Source: Botryllus schlosseri
Taxonomy: Eukaryota
Length of the DNA stretch: 64,000 nucleotides
Assembly: GCA_051294905.1 (NCBI GenBank)
Contig: CM119372.1
Span: 8,372,001 to 8,436,000 of the forward strand
Direction: 5' to 3'
Below the pieces are notes generated by a model. It did not search any database and was not told where the DNA came from. It saw nothing but the letters and a program-made list of their open reading frames with translations. Positions 19,093 through 58,968 of this stretch are shown here, piece by piece. Made by a program: the position numbers and the translations under genes. Within the stretch, counting starts at the first letter, position 1. The number at the start of each line of letters is the position of its first letter.

Positions 19093-19151
19093 TTGGATTT
19101 AAGTTCCAATGAACAAGTGTTCACATATAGGTTCGAATCCCACACCCACTA
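19093..19151 (+). pseudogene. tRNA-Leu(TAA)-derived anticodon-to-3' fragment (mirror at 27616-27674)
   Basis: Anticodon arm TTGGA-TTTAAGT-TCCAA, long variable arm TGAACA-AG-TGTTCA, T loop GGTTCGAATCC. The 5' half is absent. Confidence 0.65.
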
Positions 19152-22479: not shown

Positions 22480-22580
22480 TGTATAAGCATAAAAAACATT
22501 CCCGCGCGCGCGTCTTAGGATTAGGTGGTAGGGTTAGGCAGGGTTTAGGAGCGCGCGGGAATGTTTTTTATGCTTATACA
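22480..22580. repeat. Perfect 30-bp hairpin with telomere-like loop
   Basis: TGTATAAGCATAAAAAACATTCCCGCGCGC (22480-22509) and its exact reverse complement (22551-22580) flank a TTAGG-rich loop. Confidence 0.9.
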
Positions 22581-23214
22581 ACTCAATGAATACCCATCGG
22601 CCTGCTTACTACATTTTAAATATTCTCTCCGCTATTGTGTACACAAGAATATACTTTTCTTAGTAACCAATTTCTCGTGAATTCCGAAACACATTGACGT
22701 GTGTTAACTTCTGGTATTACGTGATAATATCATTTTCATGTCTGATAATGTCACTTGTCAAGGTGATATAAACGTAAGCTCAAACTACTTTGACATACAC
22801 AGTCCTAAAAGTAGGTAGTTCCACCTGAAAAACCTCTTGAGTAGAGGGTAAGTTATCTACGGAAATAACCATCTATATTAGTTACTTTTAGATCCCTAAT
22901 TGTACTTTTGCGCAATATTTGAGTTTTAGGAAGTACCCTTCAAAGTGAGCCTACATCTTGGATATTATCCAAAACCACATAAATTTCGCTTCGAACGAGG
23001 TATCCTTTAAAATAAGGTAGAAGTAGTCATTTCCGAGTAAGTAAAACGTTAGTACTCTAGGTCCATTTCTGTTCAATACTCTAGCTATCATGAAGTTGAT
23101 GTACTCCAATATCATAAGGACTTGAGAGTATTTGGTGCATGTAGGCAAAAAACCTACTTGGGTATTCTCACAAAGTGCGAGTACTATACTTAACAATTCT
23201 GAAAGTTAGCGCAG

Positions 23215-24250
23215 TGGTATGTTCCATTGTCATAATGTCCTACACCTGTGAACCGATCTTCAAGTTGCGCATTCAATGTTAAGCTCGGTAATTCCGTTAT
23301 TAAAGTTGAGTATGCATAGGTACGTGCTACGCTCCGCAAAAGTCGGCATGGAACTGGATTAGTTTTAAAGTTGTTCAATCATGAAATGCGTAACAAAATT
23401 TGACATGGTGCATTGTCATAATGTCTTACAACGGTGTAGCGAGTTTCAAGGTTGGGAGTCGATTATTAACATGGTAATTCCGTTATTAAAGTTGACTATG
23501 CATAGGTACGTGCTACGCTACGGAAAAACAGACTTAGCCAAAAGTCTGTATAGAACTGCGTTGGTTTTAAAGGTGTTACATCATGAAATGTGTGACGAAA
23601 TTTGGTATGGTTCATTCTTATTATGTCCTACAACTGCGTACCAACGTTCAAGGTGAGAATTTGATGTTTAGCATACTAATTCTGTTATTAAAATTGACTA
23701 TGTATGGGTATATGCTGTGTTCACGAAAAGCAGATATGCGTAAAAGACGGTATTCGACTGCGATAGTTTCAAAGGTGTTCCATCATTAGATGTGTGATGA
23801 TGAAATCTAGCATGGTGCATTGCCATAATGTCCTACAACTACGTATCAAGTTTAGAGTTGGGATTCAATGTTAAGCATGGTAATTCCGTTATTAAAGTTG
23901 GCTATGTATGGGTACGTACTATACGCCCCCACAAAACAGATGTACGCAAAATGTCGATGTAGAGCCGCGTTAGTTTTAAAGTTGTTCCAATATGAAATGC
24001 GTGAGGAAATTTCGTATGCTGCATAATCACAATGTCCTACAACTACGTACCAAGTTTCAAGGTGAGGATTCACATATTAGCATGGTAATTCTGGTATTAA
24101 AGCTGACTATGTATATGTACATGTACTGTACACGCTAGCGAAACAGATGTAGGCAAAAGTTGCTATAGAACTGCGTTAGTTTTAAAGTTATTCCATCATA
24201 AAATGTAAATGTGTGATGCAATTTGGTATGCTGCATAATCACAATGCCCT
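23215..24250. repeat. Third, diverged copy of the ~202-bp array in the spacer of A
   Basis: Direct paralogue of ~26217-27000 (offset ~3002). ORF-track entries 23381 and 26383 are similar but differ at several residues. Confidence 0.85.
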
Positions 24251-24284
24251 GGAGCTCATTTAGATACGTGTTTAATGTAGTTAC

Positions 24285-27200: not shown

Positions 27201-30200
27201 AAATCAGTATTCATTTTACAGAAACGTCGTGTGAAGGTAAAGTACTTGTACATTTCGAAGTACTCAAGTATAAGTTCTGGTCAGCTAAATTTCGATGTCA
27301 TAGAAATACCACAAACTGTGCAACTTGTACTTCTTCAGAGTACTCAATTAGGTTTTTAGCTATATGCAACAAATACTTTCGGGTGTTTTTGATATTGGAC
27401 TGCTTCAACTCCATGGTAATTATAGTATTAAGCAGAAATGAACCTACAATACGAACGTTTTACTTACTCGGAAATGACTACTTTTACGTTAATTTATAAA
27501 ACTCAAGTAAAGCTCACGAAATCCATAGTGTAAACGTCTCTAATGCGCTGAAAAAGGCAGAAAAAGTACTCAATACGCTAAATTTGAATCTAAAAATATT
27601 AATTCTCGTAAAACGTAGTGGGTGTGGGATTCGAACCTATATGTGAACACTTGTTCATTGGAACTTAAATCCAAAAAGCTATACTTTACAAAAATTTTGG
27701 AGTACTGACTTTTTTAGGTAAATTCTGTTACGCGCTTAGTTACTAACTCTGAAAGCCAGCAAATATTGTGGTATTTGATCAATATGGAAATTCGTGCACT
27801 TTGCGTTTAGGTTGTGTTGTAAACATGAGTAACTTATAACACTTGTTCATTGAAACTCAAGTCCAACGCCTTAACCGCTCGCTCAAGCCAGTTCCGTTGC
27901 TACGATATCTGAGAAATCTATTAAATTAGGGTAGAAATAACTATTTCCAAGTAAGTTTCACGAAGTCTCGATACGCTATATTTAATCTAAAAATATTAAT
28001 CCCCATAAAACGTACTGGGTGTGGGGTTCGAAGCCTAGAATAATAAGCGGATCGTGATTGAAAATAGAAGGAGGATCACTGGATTAACGTTTATGGAATA
28101 CTCCGCAATGTAAAATTAGTATATACTGCACAAAATCCAGAGTGTAAGAGTCTTTACTGCATCGGAATAGTGTAGTTTTCCATCTACTTTACAAAATTTA
28201 TACGATTTTTCCTGCTACGTTCCGGGATAAAATGTAATTTTTCGCACTTTTTAATTTTTAATAAAATTAGTATCCATTATACAAAAACGACGTGTAAAGG
28301 TAAAGTATGAATACAAGTACAAGTAGAGATTTCAAAGTAAGTAAGTGGTTATGTTCGTAGACTAACCCCACTTCTACGTAACGATTTTTCAGTAAGTAGT
28401 CATGTTTCTAGGCTACTTTTACTTCTATTTAACGAGTTTTCATACAAATCTGCTTTCTTTAATGACATTCAAGTAGGCTACTTACTTTAGATTATTAAAA
28501 GTATAGTGATTGAAAATAGATCACTGGATTATAGTTTACAGAAAACTCCACAATTCTATGTGACGTCCTTGCATGCCAACAACCTTCGAACTATTCGCCA
28601 TCTCATAAACACTTGAGTAGGCCTACATTTGATGCGTGTGGGGAAAACCTAGTTAAATTTTCATGTGCATTTAGTTTCCAGCTCTGAAAGCAAGCTTGGT
28701 CTATGATCAATAGCAACTTTTGCGTAAACTCCGTTCTATTTCACTTCATACCTATACAATGTAGATAGTCTATTCGAATAATCCGATGTATAATTGAACT
28801 TTCCTCTGCATGATCATTAGGGCTTCTATTTTTTGTTGCAGGGCAACTTTGTTGTAGCCGAAAGCGGTATTATCTAGCAACAAGGTTTAAATGACTCGCC
28901 TCCGGCGTTTATTGACCGTATTACCCGTATTCTCGTCATGCAAAAATTATGCATATATTAGTATGAAGCTCAGATGCAGCAAAGTGTGTGAGACTGGCTG
29001 TAAAATGGCGCGAAGCAGCGACTCTAATTTCCCGGCTTATAGCAAACAACGACGCTGAAATTCTACTTCAGACGCAGCAAAGTGGGTGAGACTGCCTGTA
29101 AAAATTGCGCGAAGGTACATTTCTCGGCTTATAACAAATAACGACGCTGAAATTCTACTTCAGATGCAGAAAAGTTAATGCGTTTGGCTATATAAATTGC
29201 GCGAAGGTGCATTTCTCGGCTTATAGCGAATAACGACGCTGAAATTCTACTTCAGATACAGCAAATGCGGCAAAGTCTGCGCGAATAGCTGCATAAATTG
29301 CGAAAAGATGCGACTCTAATTTTTAGGCTTTATTGCAAATACCGATCGACTTTTGCGTGAATTCTGTTATGCGTTTTACTACGTTAATGAATAAAAGTTA
29401 GTATTCTAGGTCTATATTTCTGTTTAATACTGAAAATGTCATGAAGTTGAATCGTTACTAGGTATTAATATTATGTTGATCGCGCGAAATGTGCGTAGAA
29501 TTTTAATACATCATCAAATAACCACGCCTATAGTTCAACGTGGATGAGTGTTATCTGAGAGCTCATACTATCCGCGAAAATACACAGTCCTAAATACACA
29601 TAATAGAATATCTTGCGAATATAGTCTTGCGTAGACATCATAGTTTTCGAAATTTGTTCATAAATACAAACGGCAATAGTCTGGCGGCGAGCGATAAAAC
29701 ATAGTGATCAAAATTATCGCTAAGCAATACCGATTTTGCGTAAATGCCGTTATGCGTCTGACTACGTAACTAGGGATTATGTAGTTGGTTACGAAATTGA
29801 GTGTGCTATCTTCCCAATCGGTATGGAACAACATCAAAATCATTACACAGTAATATCGACTTTTGCTTGATTTCTGTTACGCGTTTATAAATGAACATTA
29901 ATTAATTATTGATCCGCGAAAATACAAAGTTCTAAATTCACATAAGAATAAGCGAGAATTCATATTCCCAAAAACAGATCAGTACGCGTTTTCGAAGTAG
30001 TCGCATTAGTCCTAAATACACATATTAGAATATTAGTCCTAAATACACATACTATATTATCTAAGGAAAGTATCATCTAACGTATAATGAATGTTATTTA
30101 TTTCTCGGAAGCATGGACCGGCCATAGTCCGACGTTAAGTATATTATGAGAGTGTTTACATTCTAAATAGCCTGAGGGCCTGCAACAAACGATTCAACCC

Positions 30201-30208
30201 TCACTACT
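24285..30208 (-). repeat. Right inverted arm of element A
   Basis: Reverse complement of 16559-22482. Confidence 0.95.
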
Positions 30209-38907: not shown

Positions 38908-39559
38908 GCTAAAATAGCAAGCAACAAAATATTAAGCACAAAAGTCACGAGAAACCGGTGGGGATTGTAAGAAGGTGCAAGATGGTAAGGGAATCCAACC
39001 CCGAGAAAGTTAAAGTTCCCATCGACGATATTCTCCTAGCTATGAACAGTCGACGCGCGCGTCCACAATCTTATAGTCCCATTTCCTTGGGTATTTGGTG
39101 GAAAACATATGACACGTCACTCACTTTGCTACCACATCATACAACAGCACGGACTCTCCCTGCCAGAAATTTCGCAAAGGCACTATGTCAAGCAATGACG
39201 CACTATGTCGAGTTACCTTGCAACCATAGAGATCGCACGTGTGTTATAGTACATATTTTCAAATCTCCTAGTCTCAATTCGAAAACAGTGGCTTTCTGAA
39301 GAGAATGGCGCCAATGGCTATTTCAAGTTGAGACCACATCATGTTTAGAGCGCAGGTCCCCTTCGTCACGCCATCTGGTGTCACGTAATAAAACGAAATG
39401 TAAATGATGTAATTTGATTCAATCCATAAATCATGTGACTTGAATGGATGGATGCACGCGCGTCTGGTGCTACGCACTTTGTCCAAGGGACCAGACAGTG
39501 AGCTGGTGTGTTTGAGCGGACTTGTGAAGAATGATAGGGAACTTTGGTTACCATAGTTG

Positions 39560-39850
39560 TGGATGAGTCAGCAGACTTCGCATATAGATAGTTGCATTCT
39601 TCGCCTCTGCATGTCGTCGTAAGCACTCTCTTTGGCGGTGGTAATTTCTGCAATTCATCAGATAATGTTTAACGGTTTCATCAACACCTGACATACTTCG
39701 CACAGTTGTGAGTCGCTGCATATCCGATCTGGTTCAAATGGTAATTTAGTCTGCCATGCATCATTCTTGACCGCAGAACAGTCGAGTTCCCGAACCTTGT
39801 ATCCACATCAGGTATAGTCTCATTAGTCTGTCTTGAGCTGAGGATCGCAG
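39560..39850 (-). pseudogene. Non-LTR retrotransposon (LINE) ORF2 C-terminal zinc-binding relic
   Basis: Frameshifted RMMHGRLNYHLNQIGYAATHNC / VDETVKHYLMNCRNYHRQR matches the LINE motif H..LN.HL..IG...C..C...ET..H.L..C. Confidence 0.65.
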
Positions 39851-40079
39851 ATAATAAAGTTCGTAGGCCTACATCAAGGGTCGCCAACTCAATACGGCTC
39901 GCTGGCCACTTTTCAAATTTCGTAGCGGCCGCGGGCCGCATGAATGCCATATCGATATAAACTAGGCAACCACGTTTTAAAACTCTACGTCAGTACAACG
40001 CCGTGCTACCTAACATAGGCAATGGGCATAGTAACCACAAGAGAAAAAATATTATAGTAGTTATATAGATCGGTCGTGA

Positions 40080-40565
40080 GGTGGCAGGGGCTCTTATGGG
40101 CGCGGTGGCACGGTGCCGCGAAAACTCGTGGTGGCACGGTGACCCTTATGTCTTATGGCTGCGGCGGCACGGTGCCATTGTGTCTTATGGTTGTGGTGGC
40201 ATGGTTACCTTTTCGGGTATAGGCTGCGGTGGCACGGTGACCCTTATCTCTTATGGGTGCGGTCGCACATCGTATGGAAAACTCGTGGTGGCACATCGTA
40301 CTTTTGGACCCCCCCCCTCTCGGTCGCACATCGTAATGCGTTCTTATGGGTGCGCTCGCATATCGTACTTTCAGGTATACGCATCTGTCGCATATCGTAT
40401 TGAAAACTCGTGTTGGCACATCGTACTTTTAGGTATAGGCATCTGTCGCACGTCGTACTTTCGCATGTCGTATTTCGCGTATAGGCGGTGGTGGTGACTC
40501 GCCATGTGTTCTTATGGGTGCGGCCGTGAATCGCCCTTTCGTGTATAGCCATCTGTCGCACGGTG
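40080..40565. repeat. GC-rich subterminal repeats of B (mirror at ~53593-54079)
   Basis: Recurring TCTTATGG, GGTGGCACGGTG and GCACATCGTACTTT units. Confidence 0.8.
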
Positions 40566-40879
40566 TTGAATATGTATCAGATAAATAGTCATGTGAATGT
40601 ACCTTTGTTAATGTGTATATCGTAAATTATTATATATGATGTAGCTCAGTCGTGACAAATGACCGATCGTGTTCTAAGTCTTTCCTCGCTATTGATCGCT
40701 AGCTGAATAGTACTTTCAGATCGGATTATTCGCACCTTGTATACCGCTGTTTCGCACCTACAGAATAGTCTGCTGTTGACAGTCGTGACTTCACCGCGAT
40801 AGCGCAATTTTCGAATCAGTCGCATGGTAATGTTTTGCTATTTAGTTTACCACAGAGCCGGTGTAGACGACGACGATTC

Positions 40880-41470
40880 GAATACCAACAATAGCCGCGT
40901 TCACATACTAACACTCCAAAAAGGTGTGAAATATTTCCTACGACCACTCACAAGATAGCACATCAGAATAGTCATCTCTCGTGGTTTGATGTTACAAAGA
41001 TAGGGATCACGCACAAGTAATATTTTGGTAATAAGTTTGTCACATAACCGGCGCTTCCAATACCAACAATAGCCGCGTTCACATATTAACACTCCAAATA
41101 GGTGTGAAATAGTTTGCAAACCAGGCGATCGCTGACAAGATAATGTCTCAGACATACGCGACTTGATGTTACAGGCATATCGATCGCTCACGCGGTGAAA
41201 TTTTCGTAAGCAGTTTGTCACAGAACTCGTAAAGATTTAATAAGTAACGAATAACAGACCCCCAGTGTCGGTAACTTGAATAGCGACAAATTGTCACTTA
41301 TTTCTACTCTAACCCTAATCCTTTGTGAAGTGTACGCTTATTCAAAAAGGTGCGAAATAATTCTAAAATCCTACGATCGCTCACAAGATAACACCTATAA
41401 GACATAACCATCTCTCGTGACTTGTGGTTACATACATTGCAATCGCTACAATGTAATATGTTGGTAGTTT
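40880..41470. repeat. ~178-bp tandem repeat, ~3 diverged units (mirror at ~52688-53278)
   Basis: AATACCAACAATAGCCGCGTTCACATA.TAACACTCCAAA.AGGTGTGAAATA at 40881 and 41059, partial at ~41340. Confidence 0.75.
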
Positions 41471-44400
41471 GGTGCAGAACTGGATTTCACGAGTCTGATA
41501 TAATATGAATATTACCTATTAAGTAATAAGCACCGAATAACAGAACCGTCGCAGACGGTGACTTGAATATCCAAGATTTGATACTTTTCGCGATCGCTAT
41601 ATGTTTCACGTTCACTTTAGTTGTATGACAAGAATCATGCGAATATTCAAGCAATGTATCAATTTGACAACTTGAAATGAAACTTACTACACAGCTCAAG
41701 TTGATTCGTATCTGAATGTGTTAATCCGGTACAATTCTAATTAATTTGAGAAATCTTTTTAACGTGATCTTTTGATTCGATCGTAACCTGAATATTACTG
41801 ACGCCGACTTTCAGTCACATTGAATTATTCACACATTCGCGCCGCTGTTTTCACGCCTATAGAATCAATACCAACTATAACTCTACAAGAATCAAGAATC
41901 ACAAGTATGTGCATTATACAGTTATTGTCGTTGTCAACTTCAAATCAAACTCTTGATACAAACACGCATCTTATCACTTGTCAACTCTATCATGAAAATC
42001 CTCGAACCTGTATTATTAAGAATGTTATAGTACGGCGTCGGAATCCACTCGCGAGATGTACTAAAGGTAAATTGAGATCACCCAAAATGAAATATTTGGA
42101 CTTTGACATAGTCTGAATTGCAATAGATTGACAAACATGACTACCAACTTTCAACCCATACATATTTAGAGATTATGCGCATGTTGATTTGAAACAAGTA
42201 ATGACCATACAACTCTATTCACGACTGAGTTTTCCGTTTGTCAAATAGAGTTTCAGTAAATAATTTCACTATACTATCATGATATTCAAATGTGTTACCA
42301 CACACAATACAATCAATCAATGAAATAGCACCTGTTGTAAATATTTCTTACTTGACAACCACTTGTACATACCGCGATCGAGTTGCGACACGATGAGTTA
42401 AATCGGAATATTTCCATCTATTTGTCGAAACCTTGTACAAGCTATCTGGTTATTTTTTCGTTGCAATTGAGTTAACGGAAATAGTATTACGTCTCGACAT
42501 CTTACCATCTTACCATACTCCAAAAAGCCACCAAGGAAAAACCTAGTCAAGTAAATCGTTTGTAACTCACCCAATCAACTCAAACAGTATCAGTATGAAA
42601 ACAGTCAAGCATACACGAGTCCATACAATCGCCACAATCTAAAATCCATAGCAAGTTCGGTTTTAGGCATATACCGTCAACTCGTCTTTTTTGTTCAACT
42701 GTAAAAGTCGTTACTATTCTGCGAGACAAAGAAATTACTATGCGGTATATTTTGTAAGATAAAAGTAATTACTTCTCGGTGCCGGCGACTTGAGATTAAC
42801 ATAATATGTTTGAGTATGCGAGATTTGAAAGTCTGCCCAACATGTTGAGAATTCATTTCTTACAATCGAACGCAGGTGTTATATTGAAAATTATCATGAT
42901 GTAAACATAAGGATTGACACATTGATTTGACGTATGTAATAGTTGATCACGACTTGATTATTAAATTATTCGCGTTAATTAGACCCGCGTTGTGTTGAAA
43001 GTTATGACAGCAACAAACTTTTCGGAAACATTGTTATTAACATATTGATTTGTAAAACTATACTTGTCTGAAATGTTCTTGATTTGGAAGATATTCCGTG
43101 TCGGTACAAATCACTCTGCGTATTGCGGATATCAGCAAATATTTTACAAATGTAATTGTTTCCAGTACCCAAGACTAAAGATGAAACAACAATTTAGTTT
43201 GCTGATAAACAACCGGTACAATACTTTATCATCATATTCCGCGGTGAGAATTGAAACACTTTCGCGCATTACACGATGTCAAGATATCACACTAGGTGAA
43301 TTGGCATACCGCCGCTTGAATAATACCTAATCCGTTCGCACCATTTCACATACTTTGATCATTACAAAAGTAAATTGTGATATGTTTGTTAGATGCATCC
43401 AATTCAGTTAGAAATGTCTGGTGCACAACAATCGTAATATCAAAAAAGTACTTGCTACACTGTTATTTGCTAAACGTGTTTTGCATTGTTGTTCATTTGT
43501 AGTATTGATTGAAATTGTTCTTGAACCCTCAAATAATAATTCCTGACATGAAACCAAGCCGCTGAAAGTCGTTACCATCACGAAGATACAATGTGTACGA
43601 TGTTTGTCAAATGAGTCCTACCTGGCCAACAGAAAACAATTTTCACTCACTCGAAATGAAACCAATGTGATGGTCTCCAAACGATATTTTGTTTGTGTCA
43701 AATACTTTGCAATGAACACATTTGTGTGGTTGAGCTTTACATCATCAAGCTGTTATTTGTAAATCAAGATTTCGGTAAACTTGTAAATGTATCGTTTAAC
43801 TAACCGACATTTAGTGATTGGGGAACATACCAGACGATACACACCCGTCTCCGAAATACTGCATTGATCTTAATTTCCATCATCGTGATAATCGAAGTAC
43901 ATTTCTTTCGAATTCGTAACAACCGACTATGACATGATAAATTTTTGACAAGTTATGCTTGGAAGATTGGTTGCATATCGCGAAAAAAAAATAATATACC
44001 ACTCATATTGATACTGTTACTCCATTGATCGATATTTTCAAACGAGTAAAATTTATTACTTGAGTGTCCCCGCTTAATGTAAATGAAAACTCAGCCGTCT
44101 TTTAACATCACAAAGACATTGATAAAAAGTAGGCAATCAAACACAACACTTTGTACGACACTAATTATTGTTCCACACATCTCATTTCATACTAAATGTA
44201 TACGAAAGATATTCATGACACATGAAAATATTCCCATGCTACAAACCTGTACAATGATCGGTGGTGCTTTCAAACTGTTTCGATATCACAAGAACTTTAT
44301 TGTCTGAATGGGTGTTCATGTATCTTAATAATCAAATAGTTCAACACAGAACTAGTACGAACAGAAACATCAGAGTTGTTTACACAAAAGTTTGTATGTG

Positions 44401-45389
44401 CACAGTATGCGAATACCATGTGTAAGTCCAGCACAATTGCGGTATCCATCCGAGTTTAGTTAACGCAAATTTATTACAACAAGCCACGTAAACTTTCGTG
44501 AAAGAAAAGCATACTCACTTCCAGAGGGTTATGTCAACGCCATAGCAGTAAATCAGCTACTCCAACAAGAAAGTACATATGTTTTCTAGTCACGGTCCTT
44601 ACATCTTTCACATAGATCAATCTACTTTGCTAACGAAAAGTGCTGAGTCATCACATGATTGCCCTCACAACAAAACAGCTAGAAGATATTATCATACAAA
44701 AATATTCCTAACCCTTTGCGCACCAGTGACAAATCATACAACAAACATTTTTTGTGAGTCGAATTGTTGTTCAGTGTCAAGTCTACCTGTTGAAACGTAC
44801 ATTAAAACAACACAGTCACAATTCAATTAAAACCACGAATCTATTTTCATTTCGTCACATACAGAAAAATAAATTTTCTTTCCCCAACACATACTTGTAA
44901 CCAATCGCTTTCATTAAACACACAACTCCATAAAAGTATGTAATTTCTACAACATAGACATTCCGACGTAGTCAAGAAATATTTTTATTAATCAAAATCA
45001 TCGACTTCTGTTTACGGTGTTAGTGTGTGCATGTCATACACGTGGGGCCCGTATTAAAATGGACACGACACAACTGAATGTAAGGAGATAGAAGTCTATC
45101 GCATAGATTTACATGTGGTCTTCGCTACGGTTTCAAAAAAAAAAAACGAATCATCTCTTTTGCATTGATCTAGACCGAGCAAGTTAGTTAATGACCATGA
45201 TTGTGTTTGTCATATGCGAATGATAGGGTTACTGTCAAATCTACATACAACAACCTTCAGGCACTCTTAATAGCGATTTCATTCTCTCCCTTCGTAGTCA
45301 TATACCCCCAACTCGGCTTTTTTGTTCATCGACAGCTGCGTTTAACAAGACCAACGACACTGAACCCACGACGTTTACCTATGTAAAAT

Positions 45390-45900
45390 TACCACTTTCA
45401 CTTGGCAGTCCGTCGTTTACCTGGATAAACATATCATTTTCACTTGGAAATATATTTTTTCCTTGGCTAACAAACCTTTTTTCACTTGGAAATCTATTTT
45501 TTCCTTGGCTAACAAACCTTTTTTCACTTGTAAATATGTTTTTTCCTTGGCTAACAAACCTTTTTTCACTTGGAAATCTATTTTTTCTCTGGTTAACAAA
45601 CCTTTTTCCCCGGGTAACAAACCTTTTTCCCTGAGCAACAAGCCATTTTCACTTGGTGGTCCGTCGTTTACCTGAGTAAAAATATCATTTTCCTTTGGGG
45701 ATCTGGCGTTTACCCGGTGTAACAATACATTTTCGCTTGGAAAAATACTTTTACCTAGAGTAACTAATCATTTTCTCCTGGGTAACAATCCCTTTTCGTC
45801 TGGAAACTATCATCTAACTGAGTACCAATACCGTTTTCACTTGGAAATACATTTTTTCCCTGGGTAACAATACCATTTTCGTTTTGAAAACTGACAACCA
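45390..45900. repeat. 21/42-bp minisatellite (mirror at ~48258-48768)
   Basis: The 42-bp unit TTTTTTCACTTGGAAATCTATTTTTTCCTTGGCTAACAAACC repeats about 4 times, with degenerate 21-bp units around it. Confidence 0.85.
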
Positions 45901-47551
45901 CACCGGTCAATTTGATATTTTTGTATATTGTTACAACGAACAGTGACGGAAATATACACAGACTACCGGTTTCAGAGTACACCCCATCGGTCGTATCACG
46001 TCAATATCATCGGTTAACCACATACAATATACTCTTGTACACCGAAATGCACGCTTTGGAAAATTGGACAATAGGCTGCGATAGTTCTGTGATGTCCGGG
46101 TTCGTGCTTTAGATTTTCCAGAGTCAAAATGTCTGAATAAAACACCTCCTCGACGACGGTTGGTATGTGGATAACGGTGTTCGGAAAACGGTTGGATTTT
46201 TGTCGCCCATCGCGATAACAATTCCTGGTCGAGTTTTCCTCCGGCATGTTTGCTATATTGTGTCTTTATTGGTCAATGTATGTCTCGACATTCAGTTTGA
46301 AATCGGAAATGATAAAGTATGTAACCGGATCCGGATATCAACTCTGAATCGATAAACCAATGAACAATATTCAAAGTAAACATGTTACACCCTGTGTTTC
46401 CACGAAAAAATACCATCCAGACATACGTCGCGCTTGTTTGCCCACATCAGTATACGCGTAAATGGAGGTGTGTGACATTGCATGCAATGTGTTGGTATAC
46501 AAACATCGATCCACAGACATTATCATAACCGGTAGTTTTGATGTAGATCGAATGTCACCTGATAACAATGTCATACCAATAAGCCACATTGCAATGACTT
46601 TGAGTCAATCTGAAGCATGACATACAGACACACAAACATAGAAACCGTAACATGGGTATTCGCACGACTACCTTTGACAGGGAAAGTGAACTGTACAGTA
46701 CATACCAATATTGTGATCACAGTCAAATATGCGAACCGTGCACAATCATATACCCAGGTTTTTGTTGGATATGTACGAAACCGATAAATCGATACATTTC
46801 TTTTCCCTGGACATCAATAATACAATCGCCATTCAAATACATCACTCGAATGTGAGGTTCGTCTGGTGTAAAATCCATATCAAATAACACCAAAGTGTGC
46901 CTTCCGTGTTTTATCATTTCCACCGACGCTTCTTGTCTGTGTCGTAACACTATGGTGTGGGGACTTGAAAAACGACAGATTGTAAAACGGATTGACATGA
47001 CCAACTGAATCGATGTCAATAGCCTTGTGGTGATGACAGTATCAAAATGCTACCGATATGACGAGACCAACCCGATCTCTTGTAGCGATGACCGTTTCGA
47101 AATGTCACCGAACGAAATGGACCCTTACGATGATGTATTTTATGATTGTGTGTGAAATAACGAGGCAGTGTTTGTTCTATTGTGGTGTACGATTGCAGTC
47201 TTCATTCCACAGAAACACACCTTATTGGATCACAGTATCAGTCCGAGATTTGCAGAATCACTGTTCACGATATTTATCTGGAGTCGTTATGTGGGAGTAG
47301 CGACGTCCATACATCGTGACTGAAAGACTGATTGCAATCATTTCGAGCACCCGTGATTCGATAGTTCACCTTGGTCAAACGCTGCAGCAGAAACCTTCGG
47401 TGTCGACATCACGCTGGATATTGCCCGATGTATCCAATTGGTCTGGGTGGTCTGTCTGGAGATAGGGTCATGACTATCTTGTAATGTTACAACGCGATAA
47501 AACCATCGACTAAATCAGTGAACGATGTCGAAATATCGATGTAATAGCGCG

Positions 47552-50500
47552 GACTCAGAGTCATTGCAATGTGGCTTATTGGTATGACATTGTTATCAGG
47601 TGACATTCGATCTACATCAAAACTACCGGTTATGATAATGTCTGTGGATCGATGTTTGTATACCAACACATTGCATGCAATGTCACACACCTCCATTTAC
47701 GCGTATACTGATGTGGGCAAACAAGCGCGACGTATGTCTGGATGGTATTTTTTCGTGGAAACACAGGGTGTAACATGTTTACTTTGAATATTGTTCATTG
47801 GTTTATCGATTCAGAGTTGATATCCGGATCCGGTTACATACTTTATCATTTCCGATTTCAAACTGAATGTCGAGACATACATTGACCAATAAAGACACAA
47901 TATAGCAAACATGCCGGAGGAAAACTCGACCAGGAATTGTTATCGCGATGGGCGACAAAAATCCAACCGTTTTCCGAACACCGTTATCCACATACCAACC
48001 GTCGTCGAGGAGGTGTTTTATTCAGACATTTTGACTCTGGAAAATCTAAAGCACGAACCCGGACATCACAGAACTATCGCAGCCTATTGTCCAATTTTCC
48101 AAAGCGTGCATTTCGGTGTACAAGAGTATATTGTATGTGGTTAACCGATGATATTGACGTGATACGACCGATGGGGTGTACTCTGAAACCGGTAGTCTGT
48201 GTATATTTCCGTCACTGTTCGTTGTAACAATATACAAAAATATCAAATTGACCGGTGTGGTTGTCAGTTTTCAAAACGAAAATGGTATTGTTACCCAGGG
48301 AAAAAATGTATTTCCAAGTGAAAACGGTATTGGTACTCAGTTAGATGATAGTTTCCAGACGAAAAGGGATTGTTACCCAGGAGAAAATGATTAGTTACTC
48401 TAGGTAAAAGTATTTTTCCAAGCGAAAATGTATTGTTACACCGGGTAAACGCCAGATCCCCAAAGGAAAATGATATTTTTACTCAGGTAAACGACGGACC
48501 ACCAAGTGAAAATGGCTTGTTGCTCAGGGAAAAAGGTTTGTTACCCGGGGAAAAAGGTTTGTTAACCAGAGAAAAAATAGATTTCCAAGTGAAAAAAGGT
48601 TTGTTAGCCAAGGAAAAAACATATTTACAAGTGAAAAAAGGTTTGTTAGCCAAGGAAAAAATAGATTTCCAAGTGAAAAAAGGTTTGTTAGCCAAGGAAA
48701 AAATATATTTCCAAGTGAAAATGATATGTTTATCCAGGTAAACGACGGACTGCCAAGTGAAAGTGGTAATTTTACATAGGTAAACGTCGTGGGTTCAGTG
48801 TCGTTGGTCTTGTTAAACGCAGCTGTCGATGAACAAAAAAGCCGAGTTGGGGGTATATGACTACGAAGGGAGAGAATGAAATCGCTATTAAGAGTGCCTG
48901 AAGGTTGTTGTATGTAGATTTGACAGTAACCCTATCATTCGCATATGACAAACACAATCATGGTCATTAACTAACTTGCTCGGTCTAGATCAATGCAAAA
49001 GAGATGATTCGTTTTTTTTTTTTGAAACCGTAGCGAAGACCACATGTAAATCTATGCGATAGACTTCTATCTCCTTACATTCAGTTGTGTCGTGTCCATT
49101 TTAATACGGGCCCCACGTGTATGACATGCACACACTAACACCGTAAACAGAAGTCGATGATTTTGATTAATAAAAATATTTCTTGACTACGTCGGAATGT
49201 CTATGTTGTAGAAATTACATACTTTTATGGAGTTGTGTGTTTAATGAAAGCGATTGGTTACAAGTATGTGTTGGGGAAAGAAAATTTATTTTTCTGTATG
49301 TGACGAAATGAAAATAGATTCGTGGTTTTAATTGAATTGTGACTGTGTTGTTTTAATGTACGTTTCAACAGGTAGACTTGACACTGAACAACAATTCGAC
49401 TCACAAAAAATGTTTGTTGTATGATTTGTCACTGGTGCGCAAAGGGTTAGGAATATTTTTGTATGATAATATCTTCTAGCTGTTTTGTTGTGAGGGCAAT
49501 CATGTGATGACTCAGCACTTTTCGTTAGCAAAGTAGATTGATCTATGTGAAAGATGTAAGGACCGTGACTAGAAAACATATGTACTTTCTTGTTGGAGTA
49601 GCTGATTTACTGCTATGGCGTTGACATAACCCTCTGGAAGTGAGTATGCTTTTCTTTCACGAAAGTTTACGTGGCTTGTTGTAATAAATTTGCGTTAACT
49701 AAACTCGGATGGATACCGCAATTGTGCTGGACTTACACATGGTATTCGCATACTGTGCACATACAAACTTTTGTGTAAACAACTCTGATGTTTCTGTTCG
49801 TACTAGTTCTGTGTTGAACTATTTGATTATTAAGATACATGAACACCCATTCAGACAATAAAGTTCTTGTGATATCGAAACAGTTTGAAAGCACCACCGA
49901 TCATTGTACAGGTTTGTAGCATGGGAATATTTTCATGTGTCATGAATATCTTTCGTATACATTTAGTATGAAATGAGATGTGTGGAACAATAATTAGTGT
50001 CGTACAAAGTGTTGTGTTTGATTGCCTACTTTTTATCAATGTCTTTGTGATGTTAAAAGACGGCTGAGTTTTCATTTACATTAAGCGGGGACACTCAAGT
50101 AATAAATTTTACTCGTTTGAAAATATCGATCAATGGAGTAACAGTATCAATATGAGTGGTATATTATTTTTTTTTCGCGATATGCAACCAATCTTCCAAG
50201 CATAACTTGTCAAAAATTTATCATGTCATAGTCGGTTGTTACGAATTCGAAAGAAATGTACTTCGATTATCACGATGATGGAAATTAAGATCAATGCAGT
50301 ATTTCGGAGATGGGTGTGTATCGTCTGGTATGTTCCCCAATCACTAAATGTCGGTTAGTTAAACGATACATTTACAAGTTTACCGAAATCTTGATTTACA
50401 AATAACAGCTTGATGATGTAAAGCTCAACCACACAAATGTGTTCATTGCAAAGTATTTGACACAAACAAAATATCGTTTGGAGACCATCACATTGGTTTC

Positions 50501-53500
50501 ATTTCGAGTGAGTGAAAATTGTTTTCTGTTGGCCAGGTAGGACTCATTTGACAAACATCGTACACATTGTATCTTCGTGATGGTAACGACTTTCAGCGGC
50601 TTGGTTTCATGTCAGGAATTATTATTTGAGGGTTCAAGAACAATTTCAATCAATACTACAAATGAACAACAATGCAAAACACGTTTAGCAAATAACAGTG
50701 TAGCAAGTACTTTTTTGATATTACGATTGTTGTGCACCAGACATTTCTAACTGAATTGGATGCATCTAACAAACATATCACAATTTACTTTTGTAATGAT
50801 CAAAGTATGTGAAATGGTGCGAACGGATTAGGTATTATTCAAGCGGCGGTATGCCAATTCACCTAGTGTGATATCTTGACATCGTGTAATGCGCGAAAGT
50901 GTTTCAATTCTCACCGCGGAATATGATGATAAAGTATTGTACCGGTTGTTTATCAGCAAACTAAATTGTTGTTTCATCTTTAGTCTTGGGTACTGGAAAC
51001 AATTACATTTGTAAAATATTTGCTGATATCCGCAATACGCAGAGTGATTTGTACCAACACGGAATATCTTCCAAATCAAGAACATTTCAGACAAGTATAG
51101 TTTTACAAATCAATATGTTAATAACAATGTTTCCGAAAAGTTTGTTGCTGTCATAACTTTCAACACAACGCGGGTCTAATTAACGCGAATAATTTAATAA
51201 TCAAGTCGTGATCAACTATTACATACGTCAAATCAATGTGTCAATCCTTATGTTTACATCATGATAATTTTCAATATAACACCTGCGTTCGATTGTAAGA
51301 AATGAATTCTCAACATGTTGGGCAGACTTTCAAATCTCGCATACTCAAACATATTATGTTAATCTCAAGTCGCCGGCACCGAGAAGTAATTACTTTTATC
51401 TTACAAAATATACCGCATAGTAATTTCTTTGTCTCGCAGAATAGTAACGACTTTTACAGTTGAACAAAAAAGACGAGTTGACGGTATATGCCTAAAACCG
51501 AACTTGCTATGGATTTTAGATTGTGGCGATTGTATGGACTCGTGTATGCTTGACTGTTTTCATACTGATACTGTTTGAGTTGATTGGGTGAGTTACAAAC
51601 GATTTACTTGACTAGGTTTTTCCTTGGTGGCTTTTTGGAGTATGGTAAGATGGTAAGATGTCGAGACGTAATACTATTTCCGTTAACTCAATTGCAACGA
51701 AAAAATAACCAGATAGCTTGTACAAGGTTTCGACAAATAGATGGAAATATTCCGATTTAACTCATCGTGTCGCAACTCGATCGCGGTATGTACAAGTGGT
51801 TGTCAAGTAAGAAATATTTACAACAGGTGCTATTTCATTGATTGATTGTATTGTGTGTGGTAACACATTTGAATATCATGATAGTATAGTGAAATTATTT
51901 ACTGAAACTCTATTTGACAAACGGAAAACTCAGTCGTGAATAGAGTTGTATGGTCATTACTTGTTTCAAATCAACATGCGCATAATCTCTAAATATGTAT
52001 GGGTTGAAAGTTGGTAGTCATGTTTGTCAATCTATTGCAATTCAGACTATGTCAAAGTCCAAATATTTCATTTTGGGTGATCTCAATTTACCTTTAGTAC
52101 ATCTCGCGAGTGGATTCCGACGCCGTACTATAACATTCTTAATAATACAGGTTCGAGGATTTTCATGATAGAGTTGACAAGTGATAAGATGCGTGTTTGT
52201 ATCAAGAGTTTGATTTGAAGTTGACAACGACAATAACTGTATAATGCACATACTTGTGATTCTTGATTCTTGTAGAGTTATAGTTGGTATTGATTCTATA
52301 GGCGTGAAAACAGCGGCGCGAATGTGTGAATAATTCAATGTGACTGAAAGTCGGCGTCAGTAATATTCAGGTTACGATCGAATCAAAAGATCACGTTAAA
52401 AAGATTTCTCAAATTAATTAGAATTGTACCGGATTAACACATTCAGATACGAATCAACTTGAGCTGTGTAGTAAGTTTCATTTCAAGTTGTCAAATTGAT
52501 ACATTGCTTGAATATTCGCATGATTCTTGTCATACAACTAAAGTGAACGTGAAACATATAGCGATCGCGAAAAGTATCAAATCTTGGATATTCAAGTCAC
52601 CGTCTGCGACGGTTCTGTTATTCGGTGCTTATTACTTAATAGGTAATATTCATATTATATCAGACTCGTGAAATCCAGTTCTGCACCAAACTACCAACAT
52701 ATTACATTGTAGCGATTGCAATGTATGTAACCACAAGTCACGAGAGATGGTTATGTCTTATAGGTGTTATCTTGTGAGCGATCGTAGGATTTTAGAATTA
52801 TTTCGCACCTTTTTGAATAAGCGTACACTTCACAAAGGATTAGGGTTAGAGTAGAAATAAGTGACAATTTGTCGCTATTCAAGTTACCGACACTGGGGGT
52901 CTGTTATTCGTTACTTATTAAATCTTTACGAGTTCTGTGACAAACTGCTTACGAAAATTTCACCGCGTGAGCGATCGATATGCCTGTAACATCAAGTCGC
53001 GTATGTCTGAGACATTATCTTGTCAGCGATCGCCTGGTTTGCAAACTATTTCACACCTATTTGGAGTGTTAATATGTGAACGCGGCTATTGTTGGTATTG
53101 GAAGCGCCGGTTATGTGACAAACTTATTACCAAAATATTACTTGTGCGTGATCCCTATCTTTGTAACATCAAACCACGAGAGATGACTATTCTGATGTGC
53201 TATCTTGTGAGTGGTCGTAGGAAATATTTCACACCTTTTTGGAGTGTTAGTATGTGAACGCGGCTATTGTTGGTATTCGAATCGTCGTCGTCTACACCGG
53301 CTCTGTGGTAAACTAAATAGCAAAACATTACCATGCGACTGATTCGAAAATTGCGCTATCGCGGTGAAGTCACGACTGTCAACAGCAGACTATTCTGTAG
53401 GTGCGAAACAGCGGTATACAAGGTGCGAATAATCCGATCTGAAAGTACTATTCAGCTAGCGATCAATAGCGAGGAAAGACTTAGAACACGATCGGTCATT

Positions 53501-54103
53501 TGTCACGACTGAGCTACATCATATATAATAATTTACGATATACACATTAACAAAGGTACATTCACATGACTATTTATCTGATACATATTCAACACCGTGC
53601 GACAGATGGCTATACACGAAAGGGCGATTCACGGCCGCACCCATAAGAACACATGGCGAGTCACCACCACCGCCTATACGCGAAATACGACATGCGAAAG
53701 TACGACGTGCGACAGATGCCTATACCTAAAAGTACGATGTGCCAACACGAGTTTTCAATACGATATGCGACAGATGCGTATACCTGAAAGTACGATATGC
53801 GAGCGCACCCATAAGAACGCATTACGATGTGCGACCGAGAGGGGGGGGGGTCCAAAAGTACGATGTGCCACCACGAGTTTTCCATACGATGTGCGACCGC
53901 ACCCATAAGAGATAAGGGTCACCGTGCCACCGCAGCCTATACCCGAAAAGGTAACCATGCCACCACAACCATAAGACACAATGGCACCGTGCCGCCGCAG
54001 CCATAAGACATAAGGGTCACCGTGCCACCACGAGTTTTCGCGGCACCGTGCCACCGCGCCCATAAGAGCCCCTGCCACCTCACGACCGATCTATATAACT
54101 ACT
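47552..54103 (-). repeat. Right inverted arm of element B
   Basis: Reverse complement of 40056-46606. Confidence 0.95.
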
Positions 54104-54310
54104 TATTATATTAAAGAAATACAAATACAACAATAAATCATTATAATTATCACCAATTACATTTTATATGGAACTCCAAGCTGCGCAGTGCGCACGATAC
54201 CTGGAAACGCTCTTCAGCGACTAAGGAATCAATATTGGGGCTAGCGAGATACGTTACTAGCTGAAAGACCATCTCTACGTTTAGCTTGATCGTGTGGGGA
54301 AGCCATAAGC

Positions 54311-54621
54311 CAGTGGTTCTCAAACTTTTTTAGACGCGCCCCCTTTATGATACTGAAAAATTTCGCACCCCCTTATCGTCACTTCACAAAATGAAACCAG
54401 AATGCTAGCAATCCCAACGGATCGTTTGATGGCATGGAAGGTTATGACTGTTGATTAGAGAATTCTATAATATGAATTCCGGACTATACACAAAATTTGA
54501 ATCTGATATAAATCGCGCGGAGCGCAAACGAATTTTCAGTTGACCGCAGCTCCGTGCCCCCTTCGGATGCTGCTGTCACGCCCCCACAAGAGCGGCGCTC
54601 CCCCCAGTTTGAGAACCACTG
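54311..54621. mobile_element. hAT (Charlie/Buster-type) MITE
   Basis: Perfect TIR CAGTGGTTCTCAAACT / AGTTTGAGAACCACTG. The TSD is degenerate. Confidence 0.75.
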
Positions 54622-55302
54622 CCCTATCCCGTTTTCTAATTGTCTCGGTCTTGGCAGTGTTTGGGCCATTGTACGTTAAGGCAATATGCCCAGCCCATTC
54701 ATATCAGCTGATTATTCTCTCTCGATAGAATGCTCTTGCCATCGCGAAAGCCAAAGCTATAGTGACGAATAGTGATGTCGGGCACAAGAGAATAGCTTAT
54801 TTTGAAACAGCAACAACGATATGTTGAAACTGTAGTCAATTTCAGCATTTCAAGATGTCTTTCTTAGCTTTCTTCCGAAATCTCAAATCAAGTCGCGGGC
54901 CGCAAATATGACCTCGCGGGCCGCGTGTTGGTGACCCCTGGCCTTCATAGATATATACGCGTACTGATAAGTGCTTCGCGTAGAAAAACACTGTAGCAGT
55001 CTATGGCTACGACAACGAGAGATAGTGTCGTTTATGTGAAGCGTGCTTGTGAACAATAGATCAGGCTTCACATTAGATACCCCTATCCGATTGGGCGAAA
55101 GCCTACAATGAGCGTATCTCAATACATTTGTGTTAAGTAAACTATGTATTGAGACTTAACCAACCTTGGCATATCAGGACGCAAAGTTAAGTAGGCTATT
55201 GGTACAGCTATAGCTGTATACGTTATTATGTCAGGCACAGTCTAATGAAGTAGAGTAGACTGTACTTGAGTATTGTTATTCTTTCCAAACGTTACCAGAA
55301 AC

Positions 55303-58300
55303 ATGTCAGATCATATCAAAATAAGAAGTATATATACAGAAATTCGACTTTACGATGATAGTTTTCTGGAGCTCATTCGACAAAGCAATGAACTGCTTCG
55401 AGATAAAGGAAGATGGGCTCTCCATAGGGACATGGGAGTATCAGAAAATGTTATCGATGCTTTAGAGGCAATCAGGTCATTTCCGTACTTTGACTGCACT
55501 GACGGTGACGAGAATGACGACGAAGGAAAAGAAGAAGCTGAGCTGAAAAATAGCCCTATTACTTCAACCGAATTTTCAGTAGAGGAGTCAGACTACAGCA
55601 AACGCACTAGCTCAAACCACGAACCATTCGTAACGGTCAGCCAAGAGATTCGACAGTTCTGCGATGCATTCGGAATAGAGATGCAATTTAATCTTACTAA
55701 ATCGGCCAAATGCATGCTGAAATTGAGTACTTTGTACACCGGTATGGCGATAAATGAAAATGGATCTAAAATGGATCAGAAGTTGAATTTCATTCGTGCA
55801 GCAGTTCTACAAAATGCTGCAGTGATTAGATATGGTCTCAGTGGACGAGAAGAGGATTTGAATTCCTCGATCCAACAATTACAGGATCTCCATCAGAAGA
55901 TGCTCAGAGTCAGTGCTTCTATACATGATGGAGATTTTGTGGAATTCTCACAGACAATTAAAGAAAAACTGAAGGAACTTCGTATGAATGAAAAGGGAAG
56001 TTTAAATAACGTGAAAAGAATTAGACTTCACGACGAACATGCCAAGGATAGGAAGGAAAATGAAAAGGCAGCGATTTCCGAAATCAGACTACTAACAACC
56101 AATAACGCGAGTGATTATATGAAACTGATGGTGGAAGTTATGAACAAATGTCTCCAAGTAATTGGGGATCCCCCGTGCGAATTCGCGGTTGTCGGTCTCG
56201 GATCTCTGGCCCGCAAAGAAATCACACTATCCTCTGATTTCGAACACGTCATCATCCTGGATAATGGTGCTCCTGACACAGAAGAAGTTCGCGAGTACTT
56301 TAGATGGATGACGGTCATTTTCCACGTCATAATCATCGGTATCGGCGAAACGATCGTTCCCAGTGTCGATATAAAAGGACTCTGCGATCACTACTCGATT
56401 GACGATGAAAGTAACTGGTTCAGAGATGAATACACCCCTTGTGGGTTGTCATTTGATGGCATGATGCCGCATGCATGTAAATGTCCACTTGGACGACAAA
56501 TCCCGACTACGAATCGGGGTAACATCGTCGAATTGATTCAGACCGCGCACAAGATGGCAGACTATCTAACGAATGATGAACAATTAAAGAACGGTTATAT
56601 GCTGAATGATGTCCTCGGCACTTCATGTTTCGTGTTTGGAAACAAAGAAGTTTACGACAGTTTTCGTGTTCGATGTTTGGAAATTCAACAATCTCTTACC
56701 GCAGAGGAAATATTTGAAGACAAAAGAGATATGCTCAAACAAGCTGCGATAGCGAGGTATTCAAATCGACTTTTAAACTCACGCCATTTAGATGTTAAGA
56801 AATTGATTTATCGCCCAATCACAGTACTGCTGCATTACCTCGCGGCGTATTCTGGAATACGCTCTGAAAACAGTTTTGATATTCTCGATGAGTTGAATGA
56901 AAGAAATATTATCAGCGACGAGTCGCATCACACATTATGCCACGCTTTAGGAATCGCATTGGAAATCCGAATCCGTTGCTACCAAACGAGGCATCGACAA
57001 AGGAATATTGTAGCGGATAAAGAGCTGGCAAATTTAGTGGGAGAAAAGTATGTCGGTGATTGTGAAACGGCAATCACACTCCTCATGGCAACAGTACAAA
57101 ATCTGACCTATCGTCGCTTCATATTGCAGACGGAATGTGATCATATTTTCATCCCATCTAGAGAAAGCGACATTTGGCACCTGCTTTTGACAGAGGCACT
57201 GTTCCGCTATCAACAGATCGACGCAGATTTCATCCAAAACATACTGGTCTTGGTGAAAGTATTGATTGAACAATATAAAAAAGGAGAAATAACACTTGGC
57301 CGGACACATCAATACATGCAAATACATATCGAGAGATTGAGATTGGGGCTATACCAACACCTTGGTTACAACAGAGGAGGTAATATATCATCCAATGATC
57401 TTATAGATATATACGAATGGTCTTGTGAGATCGATTCCGGTCTTGCATTCGACATAACGCAGAGGCTTCAGGCTGTCTACAACCAAGCGTCTGTTCTGTA
57501 CAACGGCGGTGATTTCAAGGAAGCCGACAGATGTCTCGAAATGTGCCTCGTTATTTGTACGGATGACTGCATGGCAATCAGTGACGATACGATCGACAAT
57601 GTATCTCAATTGGAAATGGCTCTGAAACGAGAATTGCTGGATAAAGAAGAATCGCTCGAATACTTCAGCAGTGCTTGTGAACGACAAAGCAACACACTGT
57701 ACGGGAAATACCTGTATAAGTGTGAAATCGGGAGATCTCTCATTCAAATTGACGAATCAAAAGGCTATGAATACTTGCGGGACATATTCGATGAATTGAA
57801 ACTCAATTCCAAATTGTTTCAGCCGAACAGGTACACTCGTCTTATGCGCCAACTCGGTGCAGTATTCATGGAATTTGGCTATCCATTGGATGACGTTGAC
57901 GTCTACACGCAATTAGTTACCACGAGCGAGTTGAAAATCCCAGGAACCAAGGTGAATCAATTTGATCAAGGCTATCGATTGAATGAGTCACAACACTACA
58001 AGTACATCTTTGGAATGCGGCATAGCATTGGGAGACATGCTAATTTCACGTTCAACAGCGCTTACTACGAACTGCCTTTGGTGACATACATGCAGCGAGT
58101 TAGTTTTTTTCACGCTCTGAAGGTATTTTCATCTGTCACTTATGACGATATGATCACCCTGATCAAATTTGTTATGAACGATCCCTTGGGTTCATCAATG
58201 CCAGTACTCCTCGGTTACGAATTCATTACTACAGCAACAGCGCTGATGGCTTTGTGCGAAAATGTGAAAATCCGCGACATTGCTATATTTGAAGATTTGC

Positions 58301-58968
58301 TCCGATCTACATCGATCGGATGCAGGAAAATCAAAATTCTTCAGCCATTTCTCTACGCGTCCCTGAAAGATGTTGCCATGTACAGTGATTCCATGATTCC
58401 TATTATTTCCATGCAAAATGACTTATTCAAGATTATATTTGAAATCCCAGTTGGCTCACAAAGTCACCCGTACACACTGGCGGCCTCGAAGTTCTTGAAT
58501 TTCGATTTTCTCAAAAGCGCAAAGTTTATCTGGAAAATTCTCCATTCACCTTACACGTACAGTCATGATTCAATCATATTGGAATATTTCTTGACTAATG
58601 TGTTGACCTTAATGATCTCTAGAAAGAGAGAGTGTCCTCTCGTGCATTTATCAAAGTGTCGTGAAATATCTCTGAAACAATCGCTATATTATCAAATTTG
58701 CGTAACTCAAGGTCAGGATTTTGTTGACGATTACTTGTTACTGTCATACTACTATATCGGTGATACTACCCACTATGCTCTGTGTTATAACCTAGCTGTT
58801 GATTTCTTGGTTTTTGACCAGCGGTCCTGCTGCGCATTAGTTTGGAAACTTTTACATTCAGAGCAACTGTGTCCTACATTGTACCAGATGTCAGTATCAT
58901 TGCTTCTCGAATCAGTTGACAGAGAGTGCGAACTTATTTTTGAATATCCTCTGCTTTCAAGATATTAG
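55303..58968 (+). CDS. Intronless 1221-aa DUF294/GlnD-like nucleotidyltransferase plus TPR-like protein (paralogue 2)
   Basis: Collinear with 11327-14968 and has the same GSLARKEITLSSDFEH motif. ATG 55303 (MSDH) aligns with the paralogue start. Confidence 0.85.
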   Translation: MSDHIKIRSIYTEIRLYDDSFLELIRQSNELLRDKGRWALHRDMGVSENVIDALEAIRSFPYFDCTDGDENDDEGKEEAELKNSPITSTEFSVEESDYSKRTSSNHEPFVTVSQEIRQFCDAFGIEMQFNLTKSAKCMLKLSTLYTGMAINENGSKMDQKLNFIRAAVLQNAAVIRYGLSGREEDLNSSIQQLQDLHQKMLRVSASIHDGDFVEFSQTIKEKLKELRMNEKGSLNNVKRIRLHDEHAKDRKENEKAAISEIRLLTTNNASDYMKLMVEVMNKCLQVIGDPPCEFAVVGLGSLARKEITLSSDFEHVIILDNGAPDTEEVREYFRWMTVIFHVIIIGIGETIVPSVDIKGLCDHYSIDDESNWFRDEYTPCGLSFDGMMPHACKCPLGRQIPTTNRGNIVELIQTAHKMADYLTNDEQLKNGYMLNDVLGTSCFVFGNKEVYDSFRVRCLEIQQSLTAEEIFEDKRDMLKQAAIARYSNRLLNSRHLDVKKLIYRPITVLLHYLAAYSGIRSENSFDILDELNERNIISDESHHTLCHALGIALEIRIRCYQTRHRQRNIVADKELANLVGEKYVGDCETAITLLMATVQNLTYRRFILQTECDHIFIPSRESDIWHLLLTEALFRYQQIDADFIQNILVLVKVLIEQYKKGEITLGRTHQYMQIHIERLRLGLYQHLGYNRGGNISSNDLIDIYEWSCEIDSGLAFDITQRLQAVYNQASVLYNGGDFKEADRCLEMCLVICTDDCMAISDDTIDNVSQLEMALKRELLDKEESLEYFSSACERQSNTLYGKYLYKCEIGRSLIQIDESKGYEYLRDIFDELKLNSKLFQPNRYTRLMRQLGAVFMEFGYPLDDVDVYTQLVTTSELKIPGTKVNQFDQGYRLNESQHYKYIFGMRHSIGRHANFTFNSAYYELPLVTYMQRVSFFHALKVFSSVTYDDMITLIKFVMNDPLGSSMPVLLGYEFITTATALMALCENVKIRDIAIFEDLLRSTSIGCRKIKILQPFLYASLKDVAMYSDSMIPIISMQNDLFKIIFEIPVGSQSHPYTLAASKFLNFDFLKSAKFIWKILHSPYTYSHDSIILEYFLTNVLTLMISRKRECPLVHLSKCREISLKQSLYYQICVTQGQDFVDDYLLLSYYYIGDTTHYALCYNLAVDFLVFDQRSCCALVWKLLHSEQLCPTLYQMSVSLLLESVDRECELIFEYPLLSRY

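Follow-up and report, generated by a model that had tools for sequence, protein, structure and literature searches.

A gene-less palindromic element with Maverick ends in Botryllus schlosseri, probably a satellite of autonomous Mavericks

Introduction

Mavericks (Polintons) are thought to replicate by means of a protein-primed polymerase and may also form virions, neither of which has yet been observed. In this study, we analyze element B, a palindrome of 14,048 bp that occupies positions 40056–54103 of a 64,000-nucleotide stretch of the Botryllus schlosseri genome (hereafter the window; GenBank assembly GCA_051294905.1, contig CM119372.1, positions 8,372,001–8,436,000 of the forward strand). 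We find that B is a discrete insertion that carries no recognizable gene, that an autonomous Maverick of this genome has similar ends, and that the family to which B belongs numbers hundreds of copies. B is probably a non-autonomous satellite of Mavericks, with its two arms copied in the manner of terminal inverted repeats (TIRs).

Several kinds of inverted-repeat structure resemble B in part. Foldback (FB) transposons have long inverted arms, a short center, no coding capacity, and many copies, as B does, but their arms consist mainly of short tandem repeats and their target-site duplication (TSD) is 9 bp long, whereas B has arms of largely unique sequence, a 6-bp TSD, and the ends of Mavericks. 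In copy-back defective genomes and panhandle replicons, one end is repeated in inverted orientation and the inverted ends evolve in concert; copy-back genomes depend on the replication and packaging functions of a helper, a likeness that may extend to B. Inverted repetition as such is present in B, but the inverted sequence of a copy-back genome is derived from its helper, whereas the arms of B match the helper no further than the TIR, and the architecture of B is an old one that has been passed on, not one created anew. Large genomic palindromes, for example those of sex chromosomes, likewise consist of a unique spacer flanked by arms that are over 99.9% alike. Unlike the B family, which is mobile and has TSDs, they are confined to a single locus and bear genes.

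Extracts of a survey of vertebrate genomes (PMC8097293) name (AGT)2//(ACT)2 termini and a perfect TSD of 6 bp among the marks of Mavericks, give intact elements a size of 12.7–24.6 kb with TIRs of 46–1,447 bp, and state that Maverick particles have not been observed. Element B has these ends, the 6-bp TSD, TIRs, and the terminal modules of an autonomous element. It differs from the Mavericks of those extracts in that it is gene-less, lacking the autonomous set (pPolB, integrase, ATPase, protease, and capsid), and in that its TIRs reach 6.55 kb, or 93% of its length; its interior, moreover, is unrelated to that of the autonomous element. Our literature searches, which covered the main texts of papers, returned no description of palindromic non-coding Maverick derivatives. 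The consulted portions of PMC3014272, PMC6431247, and PMC11414722 describe no such elements, and those of PMC3185507 hold nothing on size limits.

Results

Element B is a discrete insertion with near-identical arms

A preliminary description of this DNA, made from the letters of the window, had reported a palindrome with AGTAGT...ACTACT ends, a TATTAT TSD, and near-identical 6.55-kb arms that make up 93% of the length. Coordinates and an arm alignment bear this out in every part. The features of B are as follows, in window positions on the forward strand; element positions count from the first base of B, and the helper is the autonomous Maverick of contig C15 treated in the next section.

40050–40055: left TSD, TATTAT; paralogous uninterrupted sites have this hexamer once
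40056–46606: left arm of 6,551 bp, effectively one very large TIR, 99.94% complementary to the right arm
40056–40247: outer terminal module (type 1), starting with AGTAGT, with GGCACGGTG at element positions 52, 78, 111, and 176
40248–40480: inner subterminal module (type 2), with six TCGCAYRTCGTA motifs at element positions 208–406
40534–40813: stretch in common with the inner helper TIR, 92–93% identical to helper TIR positions 304–552
45437–45740: 42-bp tandem repeats within the arm, mirrored at 48424–48762
46607–47551: unique center (loop) of 945 bp between the arms
47552–54103: right arm of 6,552 bp, which mirrors the left one and ends in ACTACT
54104–54109: right TSD, TATTAT

The termini read AGTAGTTATATAGATCGG... 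and ...CCGATCTATATAACTACT, and the duplication is perfect on either side. Over 6,552 alignment columns, the arms are reverse complements of each other with three mismatches and one insertion or deletion (99.94% alike). The arm differences listed in the preliminary description are all present (poly-C/G length, near 40309/53850; 43102/51056; and 43847/50311), and one further mismatch lies near 46600, some 6 bp away from where the arm meets the center. The GC-rich subterminal repeats it had mentioned are there as well: GC content is 0.47 over 40001–41000 as opposed to 0.34–0.37 in the arm interior, and G+C-rich tandem units of 33 bp and 32 bp lie at 40130–40478. Tandem repeats are limited to approximately this segment and 45427–45740 of the arm, most of which is unique sequence. 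Because the terminal 20-mer pattern has two matches in the window where 0.02 would be expected, the palindrome cannot be put down to chance.

A search of the 495-Mb, 219-contig assembly located a sister copy of B at C14:16425872–16439857, with unrelated flanks and a TSD of its own, AACATG. The identity between the two copies begins and ends exactly at the first and last bases of B, and their arms are 99.9% identical. Paralogous target sites that are uninterrupted, five of five fetched, have the flanks of B contiguous and the hexamer single (for example, ...AGTAATATTATATTAAAGG...). The boundaries of B are fixed to the base by this combination of a sister copy with different flanks and five uninterrupted sites. 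B inserted as a discrete unit and duplicated 6 bp of its target, and the sister copy at another locus shows that it has transposed recently, at least once. The very recent insertion proposed earlier agrees with the likeness of the arms, the perfect TSD, and the near-identity of the sister arms. The insertion site itself lies in a very abundant short repeat (window 39870–40055 and 54104–54500), which gave more than 2,000 candidates at first look and has copies 76–92% identical. In one raw RNA run, about 6% of which was scanned, 58 reads were found, every one of them fitting only in part.

The ends of B resemble those of an autonomous Maverick

Searching the genome with the first 345 bases of B gave 102 matches, many of them in plus/minus pairs spaced 6.6–18.5 kb apart. 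One pair, C15:3373922–3389719, bears genes. This element, the helper, is 15.8 kb long and has a 552-bp TIR, the TSD GTCGTG, and the B-type end motif. Its 359-aa open reading frame (ORF) has an rve core (E = 1.6e-16) and a chromodomain (E = 1.2e-8), and a 215-aa ORF gives weak ATPase matches, Pox_A32 among them. A 1,300-aa ORF has no direct Pfam match; its 315 homologs, with E values down to 1.9e-271 and a best identity of 37%, mostly carry PF03175, the protein-primed PolB. The Atlas clusters nearest to a 432-aa ORF have a double-jelly-roll domain in 14–30% of their members, which we take only as a lead toward a capsid protein. PDB sequence searches with the 1,300-aa and 432-aa ORFs returned no hits, and a protease was not identified among the ORFs of this element.

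Judged by nucleotide identity, the terminal modules of B are those of this autonomous Maverick. B positions 1–184 are 91% identical to the helper TIR and positions 479–728 are 92% identical, and GGCACGGTG stands at 52, 78, and 176 in both. The match is closer for another palindrome, C7a (14.06 kb), which is 98.5% identical to the same TIR over 328 bp. On contig C1, the exact 20-mer of B starts four of the five end pairs that enclose an integrase match (cross-read by eye). When the genome was searched for the integrase, 113 of 1,017 candidates were scored, and 72 of these 113 are full-length, stop-free, and 94–100% identical. An active helper for B, as the preliminary description had supposed, is therefore plausible. 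The search it had proposed for copies and for a helper with the same ends has yielded the sister copy, hundreds of family matches, and the autonomous C15 element.

No gene is recognizable in B itself, as had been claimed, and four kinds of search agree on this. In a screen for ORFs of at least 80 aa, none that starts with ATG is longer than 133 aa; tblastn of 23 helper ORFs against B gave no match beyond the TIR overlap; Pfam matched 35 stop-to-stop ORFs of at least 60 aa only twice, both times below the cut-off; and Rfam gave no match. The tblastn, Pfam, and Rfam results also gave no sign of decayed viral ORFs in the arms. The assignment of B to the non-autonomous Mavericks thus stands, on its end motif, its 6-bp TSD, the terminal modules common to an element with pPolB, rve plus chromodomain, and ATPase, and the lack of genes of its own.

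B belongs to a large family of inherited palindromes

A degenerate form of the terminal 20-mer matches the genome 639 times in forward and 642 times in reverse orientation, whereas the same pattern written backwards, used as a control, has no match in either. B is an ordinary member of a family of about 640 end pairs and not a rare novelty. Lengths were surveyed by pairing each plus match with the next minus match among the first 100 of the 1,281 matches listed, which yielded 40 pairs, with 20 rows lacking a partner. Among the matches listed, half of the pairs (20 of 40) measure 12.2–14.2 kb, with a mean of 13.48 kb and an SD of 0.47 kb, and 15 fall between 13 and 14 kb; the helpers measure 15–17 kb. 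Six pairs are shorter (6.6–11.9 kb) and 11 span 14.9–19.1 kb, and the three above 30 kb are probably nested or mispaired. One 15.8-kb end pair, C2:220104–235919, is B-like inside (94.8% identical to B positions 193–2000) and has a short end of another type, so length alone cannot separate helpers from satellites. At C3:30392078–30431358, minus-strand matches to the end module recur every 12,914 bp (30405501, 30418415, and 30431329), which suggests a tandem array or a nested stack of family members.

All eight fully fetched members of 13.1–14.8 kb are palindromic, with arms of 6.06–6.73 kb that are 99.3–99.9% identical; C9 is palindromic in three blocks. Ten further pairs on contig C1 were taken in list order, and eight of them are mirror images 4–5 kb from each end (99.1–100%), whereas two are not. 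Palindromes thus account for 16 of the 18 tested members of 13–15 kb, with arms 99.1–100% alike within a copy. The shorter members C1a, C10, and C7b (6.7 kb) appear to consist of one full arm and part of the other, as deletion forms would. A perfect 6-bp TSD and AGTAG..CTACT ends are present in all 12 elements read at both ends, including the autonomous element and an 18.6-kb member, C8a (the ends of three copies and of C8a were read manually from flank sequence).

Between copies, the arms are collinear and 72–95% identical. In a tree built from a 778-bp arm segment (18 rows; C10 and C8a, with no match of at least 500 bp, are absent), the distance between copies reaches about 0.3 substitutions per site. 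The left and right arms of each copy nevertheless pair up, except that the C14 arms are paraphyletic with respect to B. The center of B is homologous across the family, and at least 40 relatives in the genome are 89–99% identical to it. From the pairing of the arms and the family-wide homology of the center, it follows that the palindrome arose once, is inherited, and has its arms homogenized. The family thus comprises hundreds of copies with inherited arms of 6–6.7 kb and a homologous center.

The ends of B are composite. Positions 1–192 form a helper-type module, and position 193 begins the terminus of another end type; in C9/C7b-type members, the type-2 array is spaced identically and makes up the terminus from about base 36. 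To judge from this order of modules, the subterminal region of B is a recombinant of two end types, and the newer outer module sits at both ends of the element. A 30-mer tried as a marker of the module junction was not specific, having 16 exact matches and 77 with at most two mismatches. Between the arms of B and its sister, there are eight single-arm differences and two symmetric sites near the inner end. A flip-flop of the center between these two copies was considered and set aside; the arms are symmetric, so orientation is undefinable, and the sole arm-specific marker is a homopolymer length.

Discussion

Upkeep of TIR likeness by panhandle or snap-back intermediates is familiar from protein-primed replicons such as adenovirus and linear plasmids, and we infer that the arms of B are kept alike by TIR-type copying of this kind. 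The helper integrase would mobilize B in trans by recognizing the subterminal motif arrays, and the protein-primed polymerase of the helper probably copies B by recognizing the same arrays. For mobilization in trans, the sister copy at a new locus and the many open integrase frames are indirect evidence. The arms would then be TIRs that have come to occupy 93% of the element. When a single strand is displaced or excised, it may snap back into a panhandle or hairpin, and one arm would be corrected or copied from the other at every replication cycle. Such replication-coupled copying fits because the short TIRs of the helper behave alike (99.6% alike within the element, with TIRs 66–98% alike between elements), because a new end module has been installed symmetrically, and because all measured copies look young.

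Several observations weigh against this account. The closest helper TIR found falls short of full identity with B, at 91–92%. A further four elements with an integrase begin with the first 20 bases of B but are only 74–86% alike over the next 144–238 bp. Outside the TIR, B has no DNA or protein similarity to the helper, so it did not arise from that element by simple deletion or copy-back. In addition, B and its sister have arms that are 99.9% identical but centers that are only 89–91% identical, from which it follows that family members recombine; such recombination is allowed, although not predicted, by the model of TIR-type copying. Finally, C8a (C8:8233816–8252444) has a perfect TSD, AGCGTG, with two end types, and arms that are only 77–88% alike, so arm symmetry is not enforced in every case. 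This member is either chimeric or old. It also holds an internal 548-bp perfect direct repeat, which suggests a nested insertion.

The strongest competitor is a Maverick-mobilized satellite moved by the integrase alone, with no snap-back replication intermediate, and with the arms kept alike in place by intrachromosomal gene conversion from arm to arm, as happens in large palindromes of sex chromosomes. We regard this as possible but less likely. The high likeness of the arms in all 16 palindromic copies would be expected of it, given that nearest relatives often differ by 5–10%, and the differences seen in one arm of the sister are concentrated within a patch of 350 bp next to the center, much like a conversion tract. 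However, the perfect TSDs in 12 of 12 elements mark young copies, whose arm identity needs no conversion in place. The equally alike short TIRs of the autonomous element indicate that the process also acts on ordinary Maverick TIRs, and the arms of C8a have diverged.

A bolder version of the satellite idea holds that an endogenous Maverick virus packages the 13–14-kb palindromes as its defective-interfering-like satellites, in which a mirror dimer of 85–90% of the helper length is kept because it fits the helper capsid and the arms are rebuilt from each other, in a snapped-back single strand, in each round of protein-primed replication. The narrow length class just under the helper size suggests a packaging constraint, and we offer this version as an unlikely, speculative one. 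If it were true, the length class would be the first indirect sign that the Mavericks of an animal make virions and carry parasites of their own.

Two further alternatives appear very improbable. B could belong to a different superfamily as a foldback transposon, either one like Drosophila FB or one moved by another DDE transposase, with AG..CT ends by coincidence; long inverted arms, a lack of genes, and subterminal tandem repeats are what such an element would have. Its ends and motif arrays, however, are common to an element that encodes pPolB and rve, the TSD has 6 bp in all 12 elements, and the arms are mostly unique sequence. It is just as hard to see B as a hairpin-RNA locus kept by the host, in which double-stranded RNA or small RNAs would silence Mavericks through the shared TIR. 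Although a 6.5-kb perfect stem that includes TIR sequence 91–92% helper-like would suit that role, the copies number in the hundreds and bear the hallmarks of transposons, and nothing points to a conserved host locus; hairpin RNA could arise as a side effect of the structure of B.

Giant perfect palindromes are a known type of assembly artifact, and contigs built from three DNA runs are only 70–550 letters long over 39300–47551, with the flank contig ending at 39928 and none spanning, yet an inverted-duplication chimera from long-read assembly can be dismissed almost entirely, since two copies lie at different loci with different TSDs, paralogous target sites have a single hexamer, and 16 of 18 members at separate loci have the same architecture in diverged sequence.

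As the family shows, giant Mavericks have abundant non-coding parasites. A gene-less family with Maverick ends, arms that change in lock step, symmetric end swaps, and a narrow length range amounts to a natural experiment on the cis requirements of Maverick replication and integration. Hundreds of near-perfect palindromes of 14 kb, perhaps at least 1% of the 495-Mb genome, also matter for assembly and genome stability, and they are a possible source of long double-stranded RNA.

Neighboring features and other Maverick families

The window holds a second palindrome, element A, at 16559–30208. It is 13,650 bp long, with arms of at least 5,940 bp and a center of about 1.8 kb. Its ends read AGTAGT..ACTACT, with CAGTGC as a perfect 6-bp TSD; its termini are unlike those of B. 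The two elements are 73% identical over only about 535 bp, in the inner part of the B arm. Having the same end motif and TSD length as A but different termini and so little sequence in common, B represents a second family beside A, as first proposed.

Elsewhere in the genome, a second Maverick family is represented at about C13:17131011–17146429 (15.4 kb) and about C15:24445798–24462509 (16.7 kb). Its TIRs are about 290 bp long, the TSDs are CATTGG and TAGTCA, and its 384-aa integrase is 65–67% identical to that of the first family. A third integrase family is present at 54–55% identity. The second family was considered as the source of the type-2 array of B through a switch of helper, a candidate we rejected; its TIR has no similarity to B, to A, or to type-2 ends.

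Two paralogous uninterrupted ORFs, both on the plus strand, encode proteins with the DUF294 and DUF294_C nucleotidyltransferase domains. One (11261–14968; 1,235 aa) lies upstream of element A, and the other (55270–58968; 1,232 aa) lies downstream of element B.

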